Source: a virus. From it: 64,000 nucleotides of DNA. The position numbers and the translations under genes are program-made. Of the stretch, positions 18,501-55,859 are shown one piece after another (the first letter of the stretch is position 1; every line of letters begins with the position of its first letter). The notes under the pieces were generated by a model, which saw nothing but the letters and a program-made list of their open reading frames with translations, was not told where the DNA came from and did not search any database. The stretch spans positions 36,572 to 100,571 of IMG/VR virus record IMGVR_UViG_3300023174_005548; one strand, given 5' to 3'.

Positions 18501-21500
18501 TGATGCGCTATTACTAGTTATTTCAGTTAATTTTTCAAATGCTTGAGCGTAAGCTTGACTAGCATCACTTAATTTATTTAAACCTTCGGCTGCTAATTCA
18601 CCATTTTTTATTATATCACTAAGTGCTGCAGCTTTAAAAGAATCTTTAATTGAATCTATTGCTTGAACTACGCCAACTATAGCTCCAACAACTAATCCTA
18701 CGTGGCCCGGAATTACGGTTGCAATTGATGAAAATGTTGAGGCACCTTGTGAAATTCCTGATATTATATTTCCAAATGCACTTTTACCATCTCTATTAAA
18801 TGTTTCAACTACTCCTTGTAATGTTGAGAATGCAAAAGATGCAGCTAACATTTTAGCTTGCAATCCTCTCATTGCTTTACTAGAACTAGCTGCGGATGCT
18901 GCAGCTGCAGCTCCGCCACTTGGGGCAAAATTAGGTATAAATCCTCGCGCTAAAGTCTCTTGTGCCATTTTAGAATTTTTAATAGCATTATTTATTCCTT
19001 CTGGATGATCTCTTTTAACTGCAGAGAAATTAGATTGAGTATTTTTATCTCTAACATATAATCCAATACCTTCTTGAAAATCAAGCGCAGGATTTCCACC
19101 CATCTTTTTTTCTGTTTCCATTGCATCTTTAATAGAAGCGAAATTAGGAATAAAACCTTTCGCTAAGTATTCTACTGGTATATTTTTAATTCCAGCTAAT
19201 TGAGCTAATTCAAATCTATGATTTCCATCTTTTACTTCAGAATATAATTCTGGATATTGTTTAATTAAAATTGGTTGCTTTTTTAAAAATTGATAAAGTT
19301 TTTTCTTATTTTGTTTAGAAGAAAATAATTGAGTTAAATTTTGTTTAGTTATAGGACCAGAATAATTGATTCCCATTAAAGATATTAAGTTTGATAAACC
19401 TTGAGCAGTTGATTTATTTGATCTTCCAACAAAACCTCCTCGCTGAATATGTTTATTTGCATTAAATACTGCAAAATTAGGAATAAAACCCTTAGCTTTT
19501 TTAGCTGCTATTAATTTATCAAGAGGACTTGTGCCAGATGGATTTCGTGCTGTTATTGTTCTTTGATCTCCAACCAAAAGATTTTGTCTATATTCTTGTA
19601 ATGTTTTCTTTGCTGAACTTAATGATTTTCCTTTAATTGCCTCTTTTTCTCCTTGTCGAATAATATCTAAATTTGGAAGTAATGTATCTAAATCTTTTTT
19701 AATTTTATCACTCATGCTACCGCGATTTGTTTTACTTCCACTTACTTTAAAATCTGCTACATTATAATTTCCGGGAAAATATTTTCTAACTTTTGCAATA
19801 TTAGATGAATTTCTAACATCAAAATCTCCACCATCTGAAGCAGCTGCTTTAACTCCTAAAGCTTCTCCTGTACCAACTTCAAATGCTGCTCCAATAAAAG
19901 CTTGTAAGGCTCCATATGCACCTTTATATTTAGAATTTTTTGAAAATAAACCTACTAATGAATCTGTAGTAATTTTTTGTGCTGGGGGTTTATATCCAAT
20001 AGAATTTATATAATTTGTTGCACCATCTAATACCATTCTTGAAATTTTATCAATTGCCTCTTTACTGTTAAATTGTTGATATATAGATTTTTCAGACTCT
20101 ACGCCAGCTTTACTCAAAGGAATAATTGGATATTGTAAAGTAGCATCTTTATATTTTAAAGTACCAACGCTCTGGTCGCCTTCAGCAATTAACATCGCAG
20201 GATTTATTTTTCTATAAGCTGCATAAATATTTTTTTGCATTTTTTCTTGGTTACTTTTTGCAAAATTTGGTACAAATCCCAAAAACTTTAATTTATCATA
20301 ATATTCTTTTTGTCTTTTATCGCCAATTGAACCATACGTTGGAATAACTGCAGAATCACCATTACGTCCAGCACCCACAACTTCTATTTCTTTATTATTT
20401 TTTATGAACTTTTTACCACCAATAGTTCCTTGAGAAATTTGTGCACGTGGATTAACTGCGCCCATACTTCTTGCATTTTGCTCTTCTTCTCCAAAAAGAT
20501 TAGGTATAAATCCACCAGATCTAACTTGGAGTGTTCCTTTACCTGCTCCAGTTTTTCCTATAGAAACTCCAGCTGCTGATAATGAAGCTGCAAGAGATTT
20601 TGCAAGAGTAACTTGCTGTTGCATGGCAAGAGTTTGAGCTTTAATTGTATTTAAAATAGATAATTGAACTGCTTCGACTGTAGTTTGTCCACTAGCAATT
20701 TGAGTAATAATTTGTGGATTTTTACTCAATAAAGTAGTAATTTGCTCTTGAATTTGTGCTTGTTCTGCTGCTTGCGTATTTAATCCTAAAAGAGTTTTAA
20801 CTGCATCCGCTGAGAATGTTGTTAATCTTTCAAAAATAGTGAATAAAGCTCTAGCGCCAACTATTAATCCCGGTCCACTTAAAAAGTTTCCTAATCCTCT
20901 AAGTAAACCTTCTCCAATTTTATTTCCAACATCTTCACTATCTCCACCAGTAAAACTTTCTAAAGCAGTATTTAATCCACCCATAACTTTTTTCAAAGCA
21001 GGAGCAAGACTTAATTCTCCAATTTTTGCACCAGCTGCAGTTAGATTAGCTAATGTTTTATTTAAAGTGGCTGCAAGAGTTGTATTTAATTGTTCATTTC
21101 GTTTTATAGCTTCATTACTTGCTCCACTAGAAATAGATAATGCTTGAGAATAAATAGAATATTCTTTACTTAAATCTCCTAAAGCAGCTTTTAAAATATT
21201 AATTTGGAAAACGCCACCAACTTGTTCCGCGATAGAAGATTTTTGTCTGTCGTTTAGAGTATCATATTTATTTGCTAATTCAGTTAAAATATCAATAACT
21301 GGTCTAGTATTTCCAGCTAATGTTTGAGTTTCAATTCCTAATTGTTGCAAAGCATCTAAAACTTTTGGCCTTTCTAATCTTGTAAAAATTGTTTTGAAGC
21401 TGTTACCGATAACTGCACCACCTCGCGCAGTAATTTGTTGAGCAGAAGTAACAATCGCAAGCAATTGATCGAAACTAACTCCAGCATCTTCTGCGCTACT

Positions 21501-22191: not shown

Positions 22192-23193
22192 TTATAATCC
22201 ATGTAATTTTAACATATCCTGCATACTAAGTTCACCACCCTTTTTCTGAGCTTCTTTACCTAAATCTACTATCTCATCATCTTTAGAGAATTGATTGATA
22301 TTCTTAATTTCATCCTTAGAAGCTCCAATATATGTCGCTCCATCTTTCTCTTTAGATTTATGCTTAACATCTGAGGCGCTATTTATATTTCTATTTAATT
22401 CATACCAATCAAGCAATTGATCAAGATCATCATAATACTCTTCACTTGGACTAGCGCCCTTTGATAATACGTTCTTATAGACCCTTGCGTTTGAGAATAT
22501 TTCAAGCTGAAAAGTAGATAATTGAATGATAGGTTTACCATAAAAAATGAATATATCGTCTTCTGTTAAGAACATATTATTTAAGAAAAATGGAAGAGTA
22601 GCTATTTTCTTTAAGTTTTTTTGGTTGAAATTCTCAATTATTTTATTATACATTGAGATGTATACTGTGAGATCTTTTGTATCAAGTTCTTCAAAATCAT
22701 TTTCACTAAATAAATTTATTTTTAAATCTTGGTCTTTAAATATTGATCTATAAATTATCATTTCATTTGATCTTTTATTGGCGTATTTTTCTGCAGTTAT
22801 CCCTAATAAACCTTCTCGTTCTAGATTTATTTCATTTAATTCTTTTTCTAATTGTTTGATTTGGGTATTTAAACTAGTGGTTTGACTTTTAATGAATACT
22901 TTTTTAAGAGTATCTTTAAGATGTGCAATTTGTTTTTTATTAAATGCTATTTTCTTTTCTTTTTCTTCAGACCATAAATCTGCATTACATAGCTCTTCTA
23001 TCTTGCCTTTTTCATCTGGAAGACCACGAACTTTGGCCTCATTAAAATGTTGAATGTAAAGATCTTCGATTAAGCCTAAATCAATCTCATATGGATGCTT
23101 GATGTATATATTTTGAGAAGCTATATAAGAATATCCTAAAATGATATCTTTATATAATTTTCTTAAAAATCTATACTCATTATCAACTGTCAC
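22192..23193 (-). CDS. Probable tail assembly chaperone (pre-TMP)
   Basis: 333-aa charged helical protein directly upstream of the TMP; GTG start overlapping the upstream stop. Confidence 0.5.
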   Translation of the reverse strand: MTVDNEYRFLRKLYKDIILGYSYIASQNIYIKHPYEIDLGLIEDLYIQHFNEAKVRGLPDEKGKIEELCNADLWSEEKEKKIAFNKKQIAHLKDTLKKVFIKSQTTSLNTQIKQLEKELNEINLEREGLLGITAEKYANKRSNEMIIYRSIFKDQDLKINLFSENDFEELDTKDLTVYISMYNKIIENFNQKNLKKIATLPFFLNNMFLTEDDIFIFYGKPIIQLSTFQLEIFSNARVYKNVLSKGASPSEEYYDDLDQLLDWYELNRNINSASDVKHKSKEKDGATYIGASKDEIKNINQFSKDDEIVDLGKEAQKKGGELSMQDMLKLHGL

Positions 23194-24034
23194 TTACTTT
23201 AGCTTCTTCTTTTGCTTCTTCTTTTGGCTTTTCTTCTTGATTTTCTGATTTAGCTTCTGCTTTGGCTTCGTCTACAGTTATTTCAGCTTGAACAGGAATA
23301 TAATATTTTTCTGCTCTAACGAAATCTTCTTGAGAGGAGATTTTACCCATGTACCAGAAACTAATAAAATAAGCTAATTTCTTAAATGACTCATTCCAAA
23401 ATAAATTCTCTGATTCTTCTAGACTATCATAATATTCTAGTTTTTCATCAAAAGTTTTTCCTTGGAATACTGGAACAAAATCATTCGCTTTTTCATCAAG
23501 CATATAAGATAAGTTTAAAACCCACCACATAATACATTGATTTCTAGCTCTATTTTCTGCTGTTTGATCAAATAATGAAATTTGAGAAAACTCTAGATTT
23601 TGTAATTCCTGACGAATTTCAGTTAGTTCTGCTAATACAGAAGCGACTTTTGCAGTCTTGTCTTCTGGTGAAATATTCTCCAAATTAAGAGATACTTTTT
23701 GAAATTCTGTTTCTTTAGAGTAAAGATCAACATAAAGTTGAGTATACTTTTGTTTTTCTGGTTCGCTCATTGAGCCACCATCATTTTGATATCTTTTAGC
23801 AAGAAGAGCTTTTGTTAATAGGCCAGCTTTAATTCCTTCTGAAAGCTTGATGCCATAAAACAATTCAGCATCATCAAATTGTCTGCGAGTTGGTTTTTGT
23901 ATTTTAAACTTAGTTGGAACAACTTTTTTGACTTTCTTAGTTGTTTTAACTTCGTTGCCTTGAGCATCGTTGGTTACTTCAACTTGCTCGATTTCTTTTT
24001 CATTATTTACTGCGAATTCATATAGCCATTTCAT
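23183..24034 (-). CDS. Probable tail assembly chaperone
   Basis: 283-aa acidic/helical protein between tail tube and TMP; AGGAG/AAGG RBS. Confidence 0.5.
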   Translation of the reverse strand: MKWLYEFAVNNEKEIEQVEVTNDAQGNEVKTTKKVKKVVPTKFKIQKPTRRQFDDAELFYGIKLSEGIKAGLLTKALLAKRYQNDGGSMSEPEKQKYTQLYVDLYSKETEFQKVSLNLENISPEDKTAKVASVLAELTEIRQELQNLEFSQISLFDQTAENRARNQCIMWWVLNLSYMLDEKANDFVPVFQGKTFDEKLEYYDSLEESENLFWNESFKKLAYFISFWYMGKISSQEDFVRAEKYYIPVQAEITVDEAKAEAKSENQEEKPKEEAKEEAKVSDS

Positions 24035-31882: not shown

Positions 31883-34480
31883 TTAATAATTACTTGCAAA
31901 TGTAGAATATAATTTATTTCTTGCTTTTATAACTTGTAAAATATCTGTGCCACTTGGTAAAAAATTTAATGATGGAGTAATACCATTAGAAAATAAATAA
32001 CCAGTATTAAAACTCATACTTCTATTTCCTGTACCATCTTGAGTTAAGAATATAGTTATAGATTGTCCATTGTTCATATTGATTGGCTGATTAAGAGTTG
32101 AATTACCAGATAGTGTATAATCAAAAAATGTGCTAGTACTTGCATCTGGAGTAAATACAAAACCTGTAGCGCCAGAATATAATGGATAAGTAAAGTTTCC
32201 ACTAACAAGATTAAATCCAGATTCATTTATTCTTACTATAACTTTGTTTAAGGTTGTTCCACCAACATGAAATTCTATACTCGTACCAGTTGTTTGAGTA
32301 CCAATATCCAAACTTCCACCATTAATAAATAAATAGCCATCTAGCCCACTTCCGTTACTGAATGTTGGATCATCGTAACCGCTGTTATTAATACCAAGAT
32401 TAATATAATTTGTTGTATCTGTTCCATTATTAGCTGTGATAACTAAATCTGCAGTAGCAGTATTTCCAGTAGCGCGGTTTTGTATATTGATTTGTAAATA
32501 AGTATTTCCACTACCAACAATAGATAAAGGGTTATTTGATAATCCTAATGGTGTTGCGCCAGAAAGAGAAAATATTCCAGAATTAGCGAATGTTTTATTA
32601 CCATTTATCGTTTGATTTCCAGTTGTAAATAGGATATTACTACCAGAAGAGTTTATATAACCACTTAGATTGTTAATTTTTGTATCAAGAGTCGATCCAG
32701 TACTTGCAAGGTTAACTGTTGTTGCATATAAAGTTGAAGATCCAGTAAGTACTGCATTCCCATTTACAAAAAGTCCACTAGTAAAATTACCACTTCCGTA
32801 AACTGTAAATTGATTACCAGAAATAACTAAAAAGTCACCTTGCGCCGAGTCGCCAAATGTTGTATCTTGTATGAAGGTTTTAGTTCCAGAGATAGTTTGA
32901 TTTCCAGTAGTGAATACTATATTACTAGCTGAAGAATTTATATAGCCGCTGAGATTATTTATTCTTGTATTTAAAGTTGAGCCAGTACTTGCGAGATTTG
33001 TTATTGTGGCGTAATTTGCTGTTAAATTTCCGCTGAGTGAATTTATTTTGTTGTATAAAGTTGAACCAGTGCTATATAATTGAAGATCAGTTGCAAATGT
33101 AGCATCTAAAGTTCCAGTATATCCTGTAAACAAACCACTTAAAGAAATAATACTATTATTTAAATTAGAACCAGTAGAAGCGAGATTAATGGCGGATGCA
33201 GACCAACCACTTAGAGAATTTATTTTGCTATCTAGTGTTGATCCACTTGAAGCAAGATTTGATGCAGAAGCAGACCAACCGCTAAGTGAATTAATTTTAG
33301 AATCCAATGTAGATCCTGTGGATGCAAGATTAGTAGATGATGCTGACCAACCGCTTAATGAATTTATTTTATTATTTAGAGTAGTTCCAGTTGAAGCTAA
33401 ATTATTAGAAATATTATTATCTTGAGTATTAACATATCCACTTAAATTATCAATCTTTGTATTTAAATTAGAGCCTGTATTAAATAAATTAGTAATTAAT
33501 GCAGCGCCAGTAGAAGTTAAATTAATTGCTGACGCACTCCATCCACTTAACGAATTAATCTTTGAATCTAAAGTCGAACCAGTTGTATAAAGATTTGTTG
33601 TTGATGCACTCCAACCACTCAATGAGTTTATTTTGTTATCAAGAGTAGAGCCAGTGGTTGCAAGTTGAGAATCTGTAGCGTATGTCGCATCAAGATTTCC
33701 GCTAAATCCTGTTAGCATTGAATATAAATTAGATCCTGTAGATTGTAAATTAATTGCTGATGCAGAGTAACCACTTAATGAATTGATTTTTGAATCTAAT
33801 GTGCTGCCAGTACTTGCAAGATTTAATATTGTTGAATAAGTGGAAGTTAAATTTCCGCTAAGACTATTTATCTTAGAATCTAAAGTACTTCCTGTGGTCG
33901 CAAGATTTACATCAGATGCTGACCAGCCGCTAAGTGAATTTATTTTTGAATTTAAATTAGATCCAGTACTAGCAAGATTAATTATAGAAGCTGAATAACC
34001 ACTAAGAGAATTTATTTTATTATCTAATGTACTACCTGTATTATATAGTTGAAGATCTGTAGCATAAGTAGCATCTAAATTACCACTAAAATTAGTTAAT
34101 AAAGTATAAAGATTACTTCCTGTGCTTTGTAAATTAGTTGTTAGAGTATTAACTGCTGATTGAAAATATCCACTACTACCAGAAATATAAATTATATCAA
34201 CATTATTAGATGAAATTATTATGCCATCTCTTCCAGTTATATAAAGAAGATTTGGAGTTAAACCATTTATATTACTTCCAGCGCCTCTAGCGCCTGATGG
34301 ACCTATCGCACCACTTGGTCCAGTTGCTCCACTCGGTCCAATTGCTCCGCTTGGCCCTTGAGGTCCAGCTGGTCCTTGTGGACCGGGAACATAAATATTA
34401 GCATTTAAATCTTGCGTTGGAGATGTTACGTTTGTATCAATTGGATTAGGCAAACTTACATCAACGATTATGTCTGCCAT
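31883..34480 (-). CDS. Fibre protein: collagen-like segment, coiled-coil repeats and C-terminal beta domains
   Basis: G-X-Y run (GPQGPAGPQGPSGAIGPSGATGPSGAIGPSGARGAG), many LASTGSTLDSKINSLSG repeats, TGNQTISGxKTF motifs, C-terminal LTQDGTGNRS fibre-type domain. Confidence 0.8.
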   Translation of the reverse strand: MADIIVDVSLPNPIDTNVTSPTQDLNANIYVPGPQGPAGPQGPSGAIGPSGATGPSGAIGPSGARGAGSNINGLTPNLLYITGRDGIIISSNNVDIIYISGSSGYFQSAVNTLTTNLQSTGSNLYTLLTNFSGNLDATYATDLQLYNTGSTLDNKINSLSGYSASIINLASTGSNLNSKINSLSGWSASDVNLATTGSTLDSKINSLSGNLTSTYSTILNLASTGSTLDSKINSLSGYSASAINLQSTGSNLYSMLTGFSGNLDATYATDSQLATTGSTLDNKINSLSGWSASTTNLYTTGSTLDSKINSLSGWSASAINLTSTGAALITNLFNTGSNLNTKIDNLSGYVNTQDNNISNNLASTGTTLNNKINSLSGWSASSTNLASTGSTLDSKINSLSGWSASASNLASSGSTLDSKINSLSGWSASAINLASTGSNLNNSIISLSGLFTGYTGTLDATFATDLQLYSTGSTLYNKINSLSGNLTANYATITNLASTGSTLNTRINNLSGYINSSASNIVFTTGNQTISGTKTFIQDTTFGDSAQGDFLVISGNQFTVYGSGNFTSGLFVNGNAVLTGSSTLYATTVNLASTGSTLDTKINNLSGYINSSGSNILFTTGNQTINGNKTFANSGIFSLSGATPLGLSNNPLSIVGSGNTYLQINIQNRATGNTATADLVITANNGTDTTNYINLGINNSGYDDPTFSNGSGLDGYLFINGGSLDIGTQTTGTSIEFHVGGTTLNKVIVRINESGFNLVSGNFTYPLYSGATGFVFTPDASTSTFFDYTLSGNSTLNQPINMNNGQSITIFLTQDGTGNRSMSFNTGYLFSNGITPSLNFLPSGTDILQVIKARNKLYSTFASNY

Positions 34481-36438: not shown

Positions 36439-37017
36439 TTAGAGCATAATCTTTAGCAAGGCAGTATTAGATACTGCGTTACCAAGGAATTTACCAACTG
36501 CAACTTCGTTAGTTCTTAGAGTAGAAGTGTTAGCTAGATCACCAGCTGTTCCACTTACTACTGCAAACTGACCGACTGTTGCATTTGTGATTGCAGAACC
36601 GCTATAAAGTACTATGCCACGAGTTAGAACTGGAACGGCTTGTCCAGAAATAACTACGTTCATTTCAGCAGCTTTACGTGGGTTAAAAATTAATTTCTCA
36701 CCATTTTCATCAAGTTCGCGGACATCTAGGAGGGTTAGTCCAACAACGTCGCCAGAAGTAGCAATAGTTACTTTTGGTCTTACGCCGAATCTTTGTGAAT
36801 TTGATAGTGGGAATGTTGCACCAACGTCACCTAAAAAGTCGGTTGGTTGATTTGCACTGGAACTTGTTGGTCCAGTTGTGAATCCTTCAGCAGATACTTT
36901 AACAGCTAATCCTCTTGTTGCCATAATAGCAGCACTTTCAGCGGTTCCGCTAAAAGCAAAAAGGTTAAGCACTTCGTGCTCGCTGTAATCTCTGAATGGT
37001 CTTAGTGTATGTGCCAT
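36439..37017 (-). CDS. Capsid decoration/cement protein
   Basis: 192 aa between scaffold and capsid; GQAVPVLTRG...VGKFLG pattern typical of beta-tulip decoration proteins. Confidence 0.7.
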   Translation of the reverse strand: MAHTLRPFRDYSEHEVLNLFAFSGTAESAAIMATRGLAVKVSAEGFTTGPTSSSANQPTDFLGDVGATFPLSNSQRFGVRPKVTIATSGDVVGLTLLDVRELDENGEKLIFNPRKAAEMNVVISGQAVPVLTRGIVLYSGSAITNATVGQFAVVSGTAGDLANTSTLRTNEVAVGKFLGNAVSNTALLKIML

Positions 37018-54014: not shown

Positions 54015-55859
54015 TTATCTGATCATAATAGGCGAAAAAGTAGCTTCTGCCTGTACGATTTGAACGGTCATCATATCATTATAGCATTTTATAGCCCAAT
54101 TTGCCAACATAAATGCTGAATAATTGTCTTTTCTGGCTTTATTTGCTGATGCGCTTCTTTTTAAATGTTGGGGTAAATCAAAACTTTGAGTACCACGGCT
54201 AGTAGCTGAATGTTCAATTAATACGCATTGTTTTTTCGTCTGATAGATAAAGTCGTCTTGATTTTCAATAAAGTCTAAAACTGTCCAATCCTTCTTATCA
54301 TCTACTTTCATTAAATCGAATGGTATATTTAAACCTACTGTTTGATTAAATGAGGCTTCATCTGATGCTGTTCTACTTGCAAACCATACTCTTTTATAAT
54401 CAATACAAGCTTGTAGATATTCATTTGCTTTACGAATAAATGTGCTTGTAAATACTTGATTAAATGCTATTCTTTTATCATCTAAATTATATCTATTTTT
54501 AGCATTTTTAATCATTAAGTCATAATCTACGCCTTCTAAATCTGAGTCTATATCTAATGTTTTAATTTCTAATTTATGATCTTTAAATAAAGTAGATTGA
54601 TTACATGCAGATAAAAATGTATCAGCGCCAGCATTATCAAGAATCATAAATACAATATTAAAATTAGTTAAAATATAATAAAGATAATTAACATGATTTT
54701 TTAAATTACCAAGACCTGCATAAGTATGAACTAAAATACCTTGACCCTTTTCTTCGTCTAATTCCATAACTGCCATAGCAAAATAATCTGCATTAGGACT
54801 GTCACTCATATTAGGATCAATGCCAAGAATATATTTTTTCTTAGGATCGCCCTTCATTAAAGTATGAGGTGCTTCTCCAGTTTTTAATGTACATTCTTCC
54901 ATCTTCTTTGCGTTAAAATAACTATCACTACCATCTGTGAATTGCGCGCAATATTCTCGTAAGAATCCACTATGACTTGACCCACCAGCTTGAGCTTCTT
55001 CAATAATTGTTTTGTCAATCATTTCTTCTGGAAGAGCTTCGTAACTTAATTGACTAACAAAATATGTGGCTTCACCTTTTTCTGGACTATTAATTTTCTC
55101 GCACCATTCATTATAAGTTTTATAAAGATTTTCAAATGTATAGCTTGCAGATGAAAGAGCAATCATCTTACTTGTATTTTCAAATACCATTCTATCTTCT
55201 TCTTTCATTATTCCTTCTGATATTAACTTGTCTTCAAATTCACGAATCTCCATTCGTTCTTTCATGTTCTGTGGTGCTACTAAGAATGGCATTAAAACAT
55301 TTTTGATAATTTCTTCTGGAAGCAAAAGGAACTCATCAAGCACTAAAATGTTGGCTCGGAAGCCTCGAATTTTTTCTCCATTAAGAGGAATAGCAACAAT
55401 GCTGCCACCATTAATTTGCCATTCAAATTGATCATTTCTTTTAGCTTTTGCACCAAAACATTGAGCTAATAATTCTGCTCCTTTACTATCTACAATTTTT
55501 TCTAGATTATTAAAAATAAAACGAGCAGTTCTAAATGTTGGACCAGCAATTAAAATTTTAGTATTAGGTTCAAATACACATTGAAGAAAACAAAATACTG
55601 CCGCCATAAATGATTTACCACAACCACGACCAAAGACGCACATATTAAAATTTCTATTCATTAAAGCTTTAAGATGTAATTCTTGATATGAAGCTAACTT
55701 AACTCCGCTAATAAGTTCTGTTGTAAATCCTAAGTTAGCTCTTAAAAATTTTGCAAGACTTATTTTAGCCTCTTTATCATTAAGAAACCCTTTAAGTTGA
55801 GATAACTCAGCATTAACATCCTTGACTTCTCTTAAATATTTATCTGGACAGTATATCAT
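54015..55859 (-). CDS. terL: Terminase large subunit
   Basis: Walker A GRGCGKS, PTFRTA, RGFRANILVLDE Walker B, ALSSA coupling motif, RNase H-like ILGIDP and C-terminal RKDNYSA. Confidence 0.93.
   Translation of the reverse strand: MIYCPDKYLREVKDVNAELSQLKGFLNDKEAKISLAKFLRANLGFTTELISGVKLASYQELHLKALMNRNFNMCVFGRGCGKSFMAAVFCFLQCVFEPNTKILIAGPTFRTARFIFNNLEKIVDSKGAELLAQCFGAKAKRNDQFEWQINGGSIVAIPLNGEKIRGFRANILVLDEFLLLPEEIIKNVLMPFLVAPQNMKERMEIREFEDKLISEGIMKEEDRMVFENTSKMIALSSASYTFENLYKTYNEWCEKINSPEKGEATYFVSQLSYEALPEEMIDKTIIEEAQAGGSSHSGFLREYCAQFTDGSDSYFNAKKMEECTLKTGEAPHTLMKGDPKKKYILGIDPNMSDSPNADYFAMAVMELDEEKGQGILVHTYAGLGNLKNHVNYLYYILTNFNIVFMILDNAGADTFLSACNQSTLFKDHKLEIKTLDIDSDLEGVDYDLMIKNAKNRYNLDDKRIAFNQVFTSTFIRKANEYLQACIDYKRVWFASRTASDEASFNQTVGLNIPFDLMKVDDKKDWTVLDFIENQDDFIYQTKKQCVLIEHSATSRGTQSFDLPQHLKRSASANKARKDNYSAFMLANWAIKCYNDMMTVQIVQAEATFSPIMIR

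Follow-up and report, generated by a model that had tools for sequence, protein, structure and literature searches.

What allows the middle of a single phage tail protein to be assembled from unlike modules, each bounded by the same short peptide, and what might that peptide do? This question is raised by a stretch of viral DNA of 64,000 nucleotides (nt), hereafter the window (positions 36,572 to 100,571 of IMG/VR record IMGVR_UViG_3300023174_005548), in which a single open reading frame (ORF) encodes a giant tape measure protein (TMP). A first-pass annotation, made from the sequence without database searches, had proposed that a repeated heptapeptide divides this protein into exchangeable payload domains and serves as a cleavage site, a recombination junction, or both. 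Here, we report that the TMP is one of many in a large TP901-type clade from uncultured aquatic phages, that the peptide recurs throughout this clade, and that this phage recently gained or shared one module, a predicted ParB/Srx-superfamily domain, through crossovers within the codons of the peptide itself.

A recurring peptide divides the tape measure protein

A regular-expression search for GF[IV]PN[FL][AF] identified exactly five copies in the TMP, at the very residues reported at first pass (Table 1), and no further copy in any frame of the window. Only 2e-5 copies are expected by chance from the composition of the protein, and none of 20,000 shuffles produced one. A looser pattern added nothing else in the window; across the whole 100.6-kb record, where about 0.25 chance hits are expected, it returned one weak GFLPKFA at genome position 15970 (plus strand), outside the window and in a different frame or ORF. 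The copies start 78, 263, 111 and 71 amino acids (aa) apart, in agreement with the segments of 71, 256, 104 and 64 aa first described once the 7-aa motif is removed.

The array was also said to lie between a conserved N-terminal core and hydrophobic membrane segments, and here both Pfam and a Kyte-Doolittle profile (19-residue window, score of at least 1.4) agree. It is situated between the PhageMin_Tail core and a hydrophobic stretch (aa 1138-1170); nothing else close to the array is strongly hydrophobic. A Gly/Ala/Ser-rich tract comes after motif copy 5. At the DNA level, the five motif copies in this gene differ at several third positions. A reading of CCT AAT TTT as a slippery sequence was rejected because the heptamer rule does not hold and the codons vary.

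The identity of the protein is well supported. Residues 123-314 match Pfam PF10145 (PhageMin_Tail; E 1.8e-31; 110 bits against a curated cut-off of 33.2), and nine PHROG tape-measure families match the N-terminal 400-540 aa (best E 1.1e-52). Among the relatives compared, identity over the N-terminal 500 aa spans 35-100%. Together with its great length, its Ala/Gln/Lys-rich composition, the hydrophobic stretch and its setting among virion genes, PhageMin_Tail marks the protein as a TP901-type TMP.

Modules are exchanged in frame through the motif codons

Per-module identities between this TMP and its relatives are sharply mosaic. For example, one relative (P0011) shares 92-99% identity at both termini, in opener and closer and in the downstream region (the modules are named in Table 1), but 24% in the middle module, and it has no cassette G. 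Another (P0008) is 87% identical in module B and 25-32% identical in opener and closer. Likewise, cassette G is 88-95% identical at the amino-acid level in TMPs that share 22-32% identity in their other modules, and it is placed after module B, before it, or last in the array. In the protein alignment with P0011, identity continues through ...KLKFLGFVPNF, is lost at the next residue and returns at the GFIPNFA of the closer; the left breakpoint of this swap between module families B and I lies directly after the ...GFVPNF of motif copy 2.

The DNA of cassette G resolves such an event at both ends. Compared with locus L186, in which the modules are ordered opener-G-B-closer, the cassette is 96-100% identical over about 333 nt, and identity outside it is 40-55%. 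The left crossover falls inside motif copy 3, between codons 3 and 4, where identity begins at CCTAATTTTGCA, and the right crossover falls inside motif copy 4, where identity ends past GGTTTTAT. Because both crossovers fall in motif codons and the DNA between them is 96-100% identical, this comparison directly shows a recent, in-frame, motif-mediated cassette transfer. The first-pass proposals of a polymorphic array and of a recombination junction are therefore both borne out: homologous TMPs keep the flanks and vary the number, identity and order of modules, and the transferred cassette was joined within the motif at either side. A further relative, L185, carries an additional 207-aa module between B and G.

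Table 1. Features of the TMP gene and of its surroundings, in window coordinates.
Feature	Position in window	Strand	Basis or remark
TMP gene (P0001), 2209 aa	15525..22154	-	single ORF; Pfam and PHROG matches
PhageMin_Tail core (aa 123-314), part of the conserved N-terminal 540 aa	21213..21788	-	Pfam
Motif copy 1, GFIPNLF (aa 548), array start	20493..20513	-	regular expression
Opener module, family C (aa 555-625)	20280..20492	-	first in array in 120 proteins and 25 loci
Motif copy 2, GFVPNFA (aa 626)	20259..20279	-	regular expression
Core module of about 260 aa, family B (aa 633-888)	19491..20258	-	homologous to families F and I
Conserved core of module B: G755, F758, E759, D779, D801-x-K803, K817	19695..19922	-	38-sequence alignment
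Motif copy 3, GFIPNFA (aa 889), left crossover of ParB-like cassette	19470..19490	-	regular expression; comparison with L186
Accessory cassette G, predicted ParB/Srx-superfamily domain (aa 896-999)	19158..19469	-	profile; solo homologues
DGNHR of cassette G (aa 976-980)	19215-19229	-	
Motif copy 4, GFIPNFA (aa 1000), right crossover of ParB-like cassette	19137..19157	-	regular expression; comparison with L186
Closer module, family A (aa 1007-1070)	18945..19136	-	in 103/120 relatives
Motif copy 5, GFIPNFA (aa 1071), array end	18924..18944	-	regular expression
Hydrophobic, membrane-segment-like stretch (aa 1138-1170), downstream of array	18645..18743	-	Kyte-Doolittle
Large terminase	54015-55859		

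The array has a conserved core and accessory cargo

To what extent is the content of the array variable? We clustered 383 inter-motif segments from 120 related TMPs and found a recurring core that consists of an opener (families C, D and L; 65-85 aa), a module of 220-330 aa (families B, E, F and I) and a closer (family A; 64-78 aa). The opener comes first throughout the 120 proteins, as it does in a set of 25 IMG/VR loci that were retrieved independently. The closer, present in 103 of the 120 relatives, is the last module before the TMP body resumes, and it is also last in all but one of the 25 loci, the exception having a 142-aa module after it. Larger TMPs accommodate extra modules between opener and closer, and some feature a second array near the C-terminus that is closer-terminated too. 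As opener, ~260-aa module and closer recur across the clade, three of the four segments in the window represent the conserved core of the slot, and module G is the one clearly accessory cassette of this phage. The earlier view of the inter-motif content as polymorphic payload thus applies to the ParB-like module but not to the three core modules.

The opener is recognized by the pattern E..A..G(A/G)..P.A...N..E...SAVIP; families C and D align with one another, and the N and E are invariant. PDB profile searches with the opener and with the closer gave no match. A paralogous relationship between the two is not supported, since hhalign gives 97.9% with the flanking motifs and <50% once the motifs are stripped. 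Beyond the core, Pfam named no family in ten other cargo modules from relatives. In a 164-aa TMP fragment (P0135), GYIPNF is followed by a domain named GNAT acetyltransferase by the Joint Genome Institute (JGI), which is another cargo type of the clade.

AlphaFold2 models of opener plus module B and of cassette G plus closer reached a mean predicted local distance difference test (pLDDT) score of 44 and 51, respectively, which is too poor for fold assignment; the opener itself scored about 66-71, and the motif regions scored 55 or less in both models, as did most of each model. Independent folding is therefore established for G only, via its solo homologues. Of the original description of all segments as globular, the part concerning the 111-aa module stands, as it is an autonomous domain family, but the AlphaFold2 models are of low confidence for all four.

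Selection acts on the peptide

Searching with residues 540-1085 of the TMP identified 254 related metagenomic TMPs of 1214-3866 aa. The pattern G[FYW][IVL]PN is present in all 120 of those retrieved, nearly all of them with 2-9 copies at variable spacing. The sequence logo of 430 unique instances reads [AS]-x-G-[FY]-[IV]-P-N-F-[AS], with G, P and N fixed and no conservation in the flanks. The 156 DNA instances, which come from loci identified through homology, make use of all four codons for Gly, all four for Pro and both for Asn. Every synonymous codon is thus used, so it is the peptide itself that is under strong selection.

The motif pattern can be written as GGNTTYATHCCNAAYTTYGC. We also scanned IMG/VR with a degenerate DNA form of the motif. 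Among the matches listed, 74 of 80 ORFs are giant TMP-like frames, the other six are short, chance-like stop-to-stop frames, and the motif is in effect TMP-specific. The array had no tblastn match in 50,697 GenBank phage records, so no cultured relative is at hand; the clade is known so far from metagenomes only, both freshwater and TARA marine. A literature search for the motif strings found no paper.

More distant homologous TMPs carry GYMPKFA, GFMPKFA or GHIPRFA at equivalent boundaries, with Asn replaced by Lys or Arg. Four distant loci (L027, L046, L061 and L020) keep the opener and the E...D...(D/E)xK module, bounded by GYMPKFA, GFMPKFA, GHIPRFA or GTIPNFA, and their opener peptide is shortened to GFM-EEE. 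These variants may represent an older or degenerate form of the motif.

Two side observations concern the retrieved proteins. Several motif-bearing TMPs (P0090, P0100, P0109 and others) also contain Pfam PF01832 (Glucosaminidase), so that one TMP can hold classical muralytic domains alongside motif-fenced cassettes. The C-terminus of P0138 reads ...CLLYTSPSPRD, which resembles translated sequencing-adaptor (Nextera) sequence; a number of the short database hits therefore probably represent TMP fragments with artefactual ends.

Cassette G is a predicted ParB/Srx-superfamily domain

Cassette G is found in 16 of the 120 relatives, at varying array positions. A word-based search for free-standing G homologues returned none, but an exhaustive profile search of 1.84 billion representative proteins found 46 relatives, including solo proteins of 122-135 aa and other fusions. 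The D, G, H and R of the DG(N/H)HR signature are invariant in 20 members of the family, and this loop supplies the conserved active-site Arg (GxxR/DGxHR) of the ParB/Srx superfamily. When the profile of G and its solo homologues was compared with the PDB, the top nine hits were all of ParB/Srx type, among them SbnI (5uje; E 5.6e-4), 1vk1 (1.5e-3), SerK (4.6e-3) and Noc (0.04). With Pfam, 7 of the 20 members matched ParB_N (best 3.9e-9) and 5 matched ParBc_2. The window's own G, taken alone, falls below the Pfam cut-off for ParB_N (15.9 vs 26.3 bits), and this sub-threshold hit is all that Pfam and PHROGs returned for single array segments.

Based on the profile hits, the Pfam ParB_N members, the invariant DG(N/H)HR and the solo homologues, we classify G as a predicted autonomous ParB/Srx-superfamily domain, and the ParB/Srx-like label first given to this segment is upheld. 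One protein from the G profile search (P0158, 336 aa) joins a G-like ParB/Srx domain to a weak match (E 0.0017) for ART-PolyVal, the ADP-ribosyltransferase of polyvalent proteins. It links the G cassette family to the polyvalent-protein domain pool, of which ParB-like domains are known components in phages (PMC5512222).

Module B carries the residue pattern of a PD-(D/E)xK site

Among the ~260-aa modules, hhalign shows families B, F and I to be homologous (94-99%) and family E to match them more weakly (62-71%). In an alignment of 38 module B sequences, G755, F758 and K803 are invariant; E759, D779 and K817 are near-invariant, the first two conserved in at least 90%; and position 801 is always D or E among the variants read. 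The order of these residues (E759...D779...D801-x-K803) is that of a PD-(D/E)xK site. This resemblance is one of residue pattern only, and to that extent the PD-(D/E)xK-like label of the first pass can be kept, but no profile, fold or family match accompanies it: no Pfam family at E of 1 or below recurs among the 38 members, a PDB profile search returned chance-level hits only, ESM Atlas look-alikes yielded nothing usable, and the AlphaFold2 model of the region is helical at low confidence (mean pLDDT 44). A search for free-standing homologues of module B found none, as all 17 hits are TMP fragments.

What the junction peptide may do

On balance, we lean towards an explanation that combines an exchangeable cassette slot, tail-carried modules, a junction peptide read by a partner, and nucleic-acid-active cargo. 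A slot between the PhageMin_Tail core and the hydrophobic segment is built into the TMPs of this clade and holds modules strung together by a fixed grammar: first an opener, then the ~260-aa E...D...(D/E)xK module, optional cargo and a closer, with [AS]xG[FY][IV]PNF[AS] at every module boundary. The motif codons, the only sequence common to all boundaries, act as in-frame crossover points through which whole modules are inserted, replaced and reordered, even between distantly related phages. Being part of the TMP, the modules would ride within the tail and, to judge from T5, lambda and P23-45, exit together with the TMP at infection before the DNA. The peptide would be a short linear motif read by a partner; its near-invariance amid variable flanks and within stretches of low pLDDT fits this role. 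At the start of infection, the ~260-aa module and the ParB-like cassette would most likely act on nucleic acid or nucleotides.

Which partner might read the peptide? We rank a processing site, at which cleavage frees the modules, as the most likely reading, tentative as it is; a docking or stapling site in the tail comes second and is somewhat doubtful, and other readings rank below these two. Cleavage is known from other TMPs. In phage T5, the TMP pb2 is converted to pb2* and pb2C by a cut after R1127, between SFVPR and AEGG, and the fragment stays in the virion (PMC10038345); in lambda, gpH is converted to gpH*, and its fragment stays in the virion as well (PMC12617516). Both cuts occur during tail assembly and part an enzymatic portion from the ruler (PMC10038345, PMC12617516). 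The T5 site shares F-[VI]-P with the motif, and the GHIPRFA of this TMP's distant relatives, like their GYMPKFA and GFMPKFA, brings the motif nearer to the T5 cleavage site. However, T5 has one cut site compared to 2-9 motif copies here, the likeness comes to three residues, and the T5 cut lies after a hydrophobic stretch while the array lies before one. Homology of the opener to pb2C was also considered and rejected, as pb2 has no score against the module profiles.

Several observations weigh against the explanation we favor. No protease was recognized in the TMP or in the neighboring genes scanned, and module B has no match to a nuclease family or structure by Pfam or PDB profile. Neither module B nor closer A is confidently folded by AlphaFold2 (mean pLDDT 44 and 51). 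The array occupies the N-terminal, head-proximal half of the TMP and would therefore leave the tail last. Finally, the likeness to the T5 cleavage site extends only to F-V-P-(R), and T5 pb2 scores nothing against any of the module profiles.

A more far-reaching version treats the TMP as a plug-in delivery rack, in which the nine-residue peptide would be both a recombination handle and a site of cutting or release after ejection, so that a phage-specific kit of nucleic-acid enzymes would enter the cell ahead of the genome. We regard this version as speculative and rather unlikely. Such a system would parallel polymorphic toxins and polyvalent proteins, but would be borne by the tail and exchange its cassettes.

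The strongest competitor, although we would not bet on it, is that the peptide is a structural joint at which the three or six TMP chains are stapled together, or are gripped by the tube wall or an assembly chaperone, with bulky inserts held as beads between fixed anchors and no module ever detached from the TMP. The array grammar agrees with such stapling or docking as well as it does with cleavage. TMPs are trimers or hexamers within the tube (PMC10038345, PMC12617516), and the peptide, with its hydrophobic and aromatic residues (F/Y, I/V, P, F), is the same at every boundary, as would suit one repeated partner. Opener and closer always bracket the array, as is expected if the chain has to be managed where it joins and leaves the TMP axis, and the failure to recognize a protease in the neighboring genes scanned is also in keeping with a joint. 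It is less readily reconciled with the finding that no other protein of this phage contains the motif, and a purely structural joint would have no obvious need for seven near-invariant residues across TMPs that are 20-30% identical.

The remaining alternatives are far less probable. Asn-dependent autocleavage is known from inteins and from the capsid maturation of nodaviruses and tetraviruses, and the motif might likewise cleave itself, its Asn cyclising to break the N-F bond and free the modules without a protease. Pro and Asn are indeed invariant in the 430 canonical instances, and such chemistry would explain the lack of a recognizable protease in the TMP or the neighboring genes scanned, but the distant homologues with GYMPKFA, GFMPKFA and GHIPRFA argue against it, as Lys and Arg at equivalent boundaries cannot cyclise in this way; nor does the logo contain a conserved catalytic partner residue beside the motif. 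We give self-cleavage very little weight. Equally improbable is a motif conserved purely for recombination of the DNA (as a site or microhomology), its peptide having no role of its own. The crossovers of the transferred cassette do lie inside the 21-nt motif, but the amino-acid sequence is conserved while its codons are free, both clade-wide and among the copies of this gene, so that recombination looks like a consequence of peptide conservation and not its cause.

Comparison with known phage systems

The closest precedent for tail delivery is gp96 of Thermus phage P23-45, a virion RNA polymerase fused to the TMP that works at infection (PMC10770324). Presumably it exits the tail together with the TMP and becomes active at the onset of infection (PMC10770324). 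As in the TMP described here, the enzyme domain is located inside a giant TMP, N-terminal to the ruler part. Unlike it, gp96 features one fixed enzyme, with no repeated boundary peptide, no array and no evidence of cassette exchange, and its enzyme activity is experimentally demonstrated, whereas the activities here are predicted.

Polyvalent proteins offer the closest precedent for module content. They combine many effector-type domains, ParB-like domains included, along a single polypeptide whose delivery accompanies that of the DNA (Iyer et al. 2017, PMC5512222); their domain content is highly variable, and processing into units has been proposed, with an embedded MPTase domain predicted to perform it (PMC5512222). 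The term "tape measure" is absent from the text of that study (PMC5512222). The array resembles these proteins in being multi-modular and variable and in having a ParB-like domain, although most of its other modules have no recognized family. Polyvalent proteins differ in that they are delivered from the head or by conjugation, are not TMPs and have no common boundary peptide. Neither an MPTase-type peptidase nor a MuF head anchor was found in this TMP by Pfam or PHROGs; here the anchor is the TMP. A universal boundary peptide and cassette exchange are both absent from P23-45 gp96 and from polyvalent proteins.

Other TMPs also tolerate extra functional domains, which are used there at infection. 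The TMP of mycobacteriophage TM4 has an Rpf-like motif and T5 pb2 a peptidase, both being cell-wall enzymes embedded in TMPs (see also PMC12617516). Such inserts are single, fixed and muralytic, whereas those described here are multiple, motif-fenced and exchanged, and are predicted to be of nucleic-acid type or other.

Genome context

The source record (100.6 kb; CheckV completeness 66%; GC content about 30%) carries nearly all of its genes on the minus strand, few of them with recognizable families. The large terminase and a baseplate-type protein are encoded on the same strand as the TMP. Two minus-strand ORFs immediately upstream of the TMP gene (22192-23193 and 23183-24034) encode proteins of 283 and 333 aa and overlap by 11 nt. 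Neither of them matched a family; by position, they could represent the two tail assembly chaperones, perhaps linked through a frameshift. Elsewhere in the window, an 865-aa protein (31883-34480, minus strand) combines a collagen-like repeat with a BppL_N lower-baseplate N-terminal domain (E 1.9e-8) and is probably a receptor-binding fibre.

Implications for tape measure proteins

TMPs are usually seen as passive rulers with an occasional cell-wall enzyme. In the clade described here, hundreds of environmental phages share a junction peptide that permits in-frame exchange of modules, and at least one exchange is very recent. The array also defines new domain families, namely the opener, the closer and the TMP-only E...D...(D/E)xK module. 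Even without delivery, it is a clear case of domain shuffling via conserved peptide-coding microhomology. If the modules are delivered, the array would represent a new route for pre-made enzymes into the host before gene expression, with a polymorphism akin to that of toxin and anti-defence systems. The junction peptide would also offer a natural, portable site at which foreign proteins could be loaded into phage tails.

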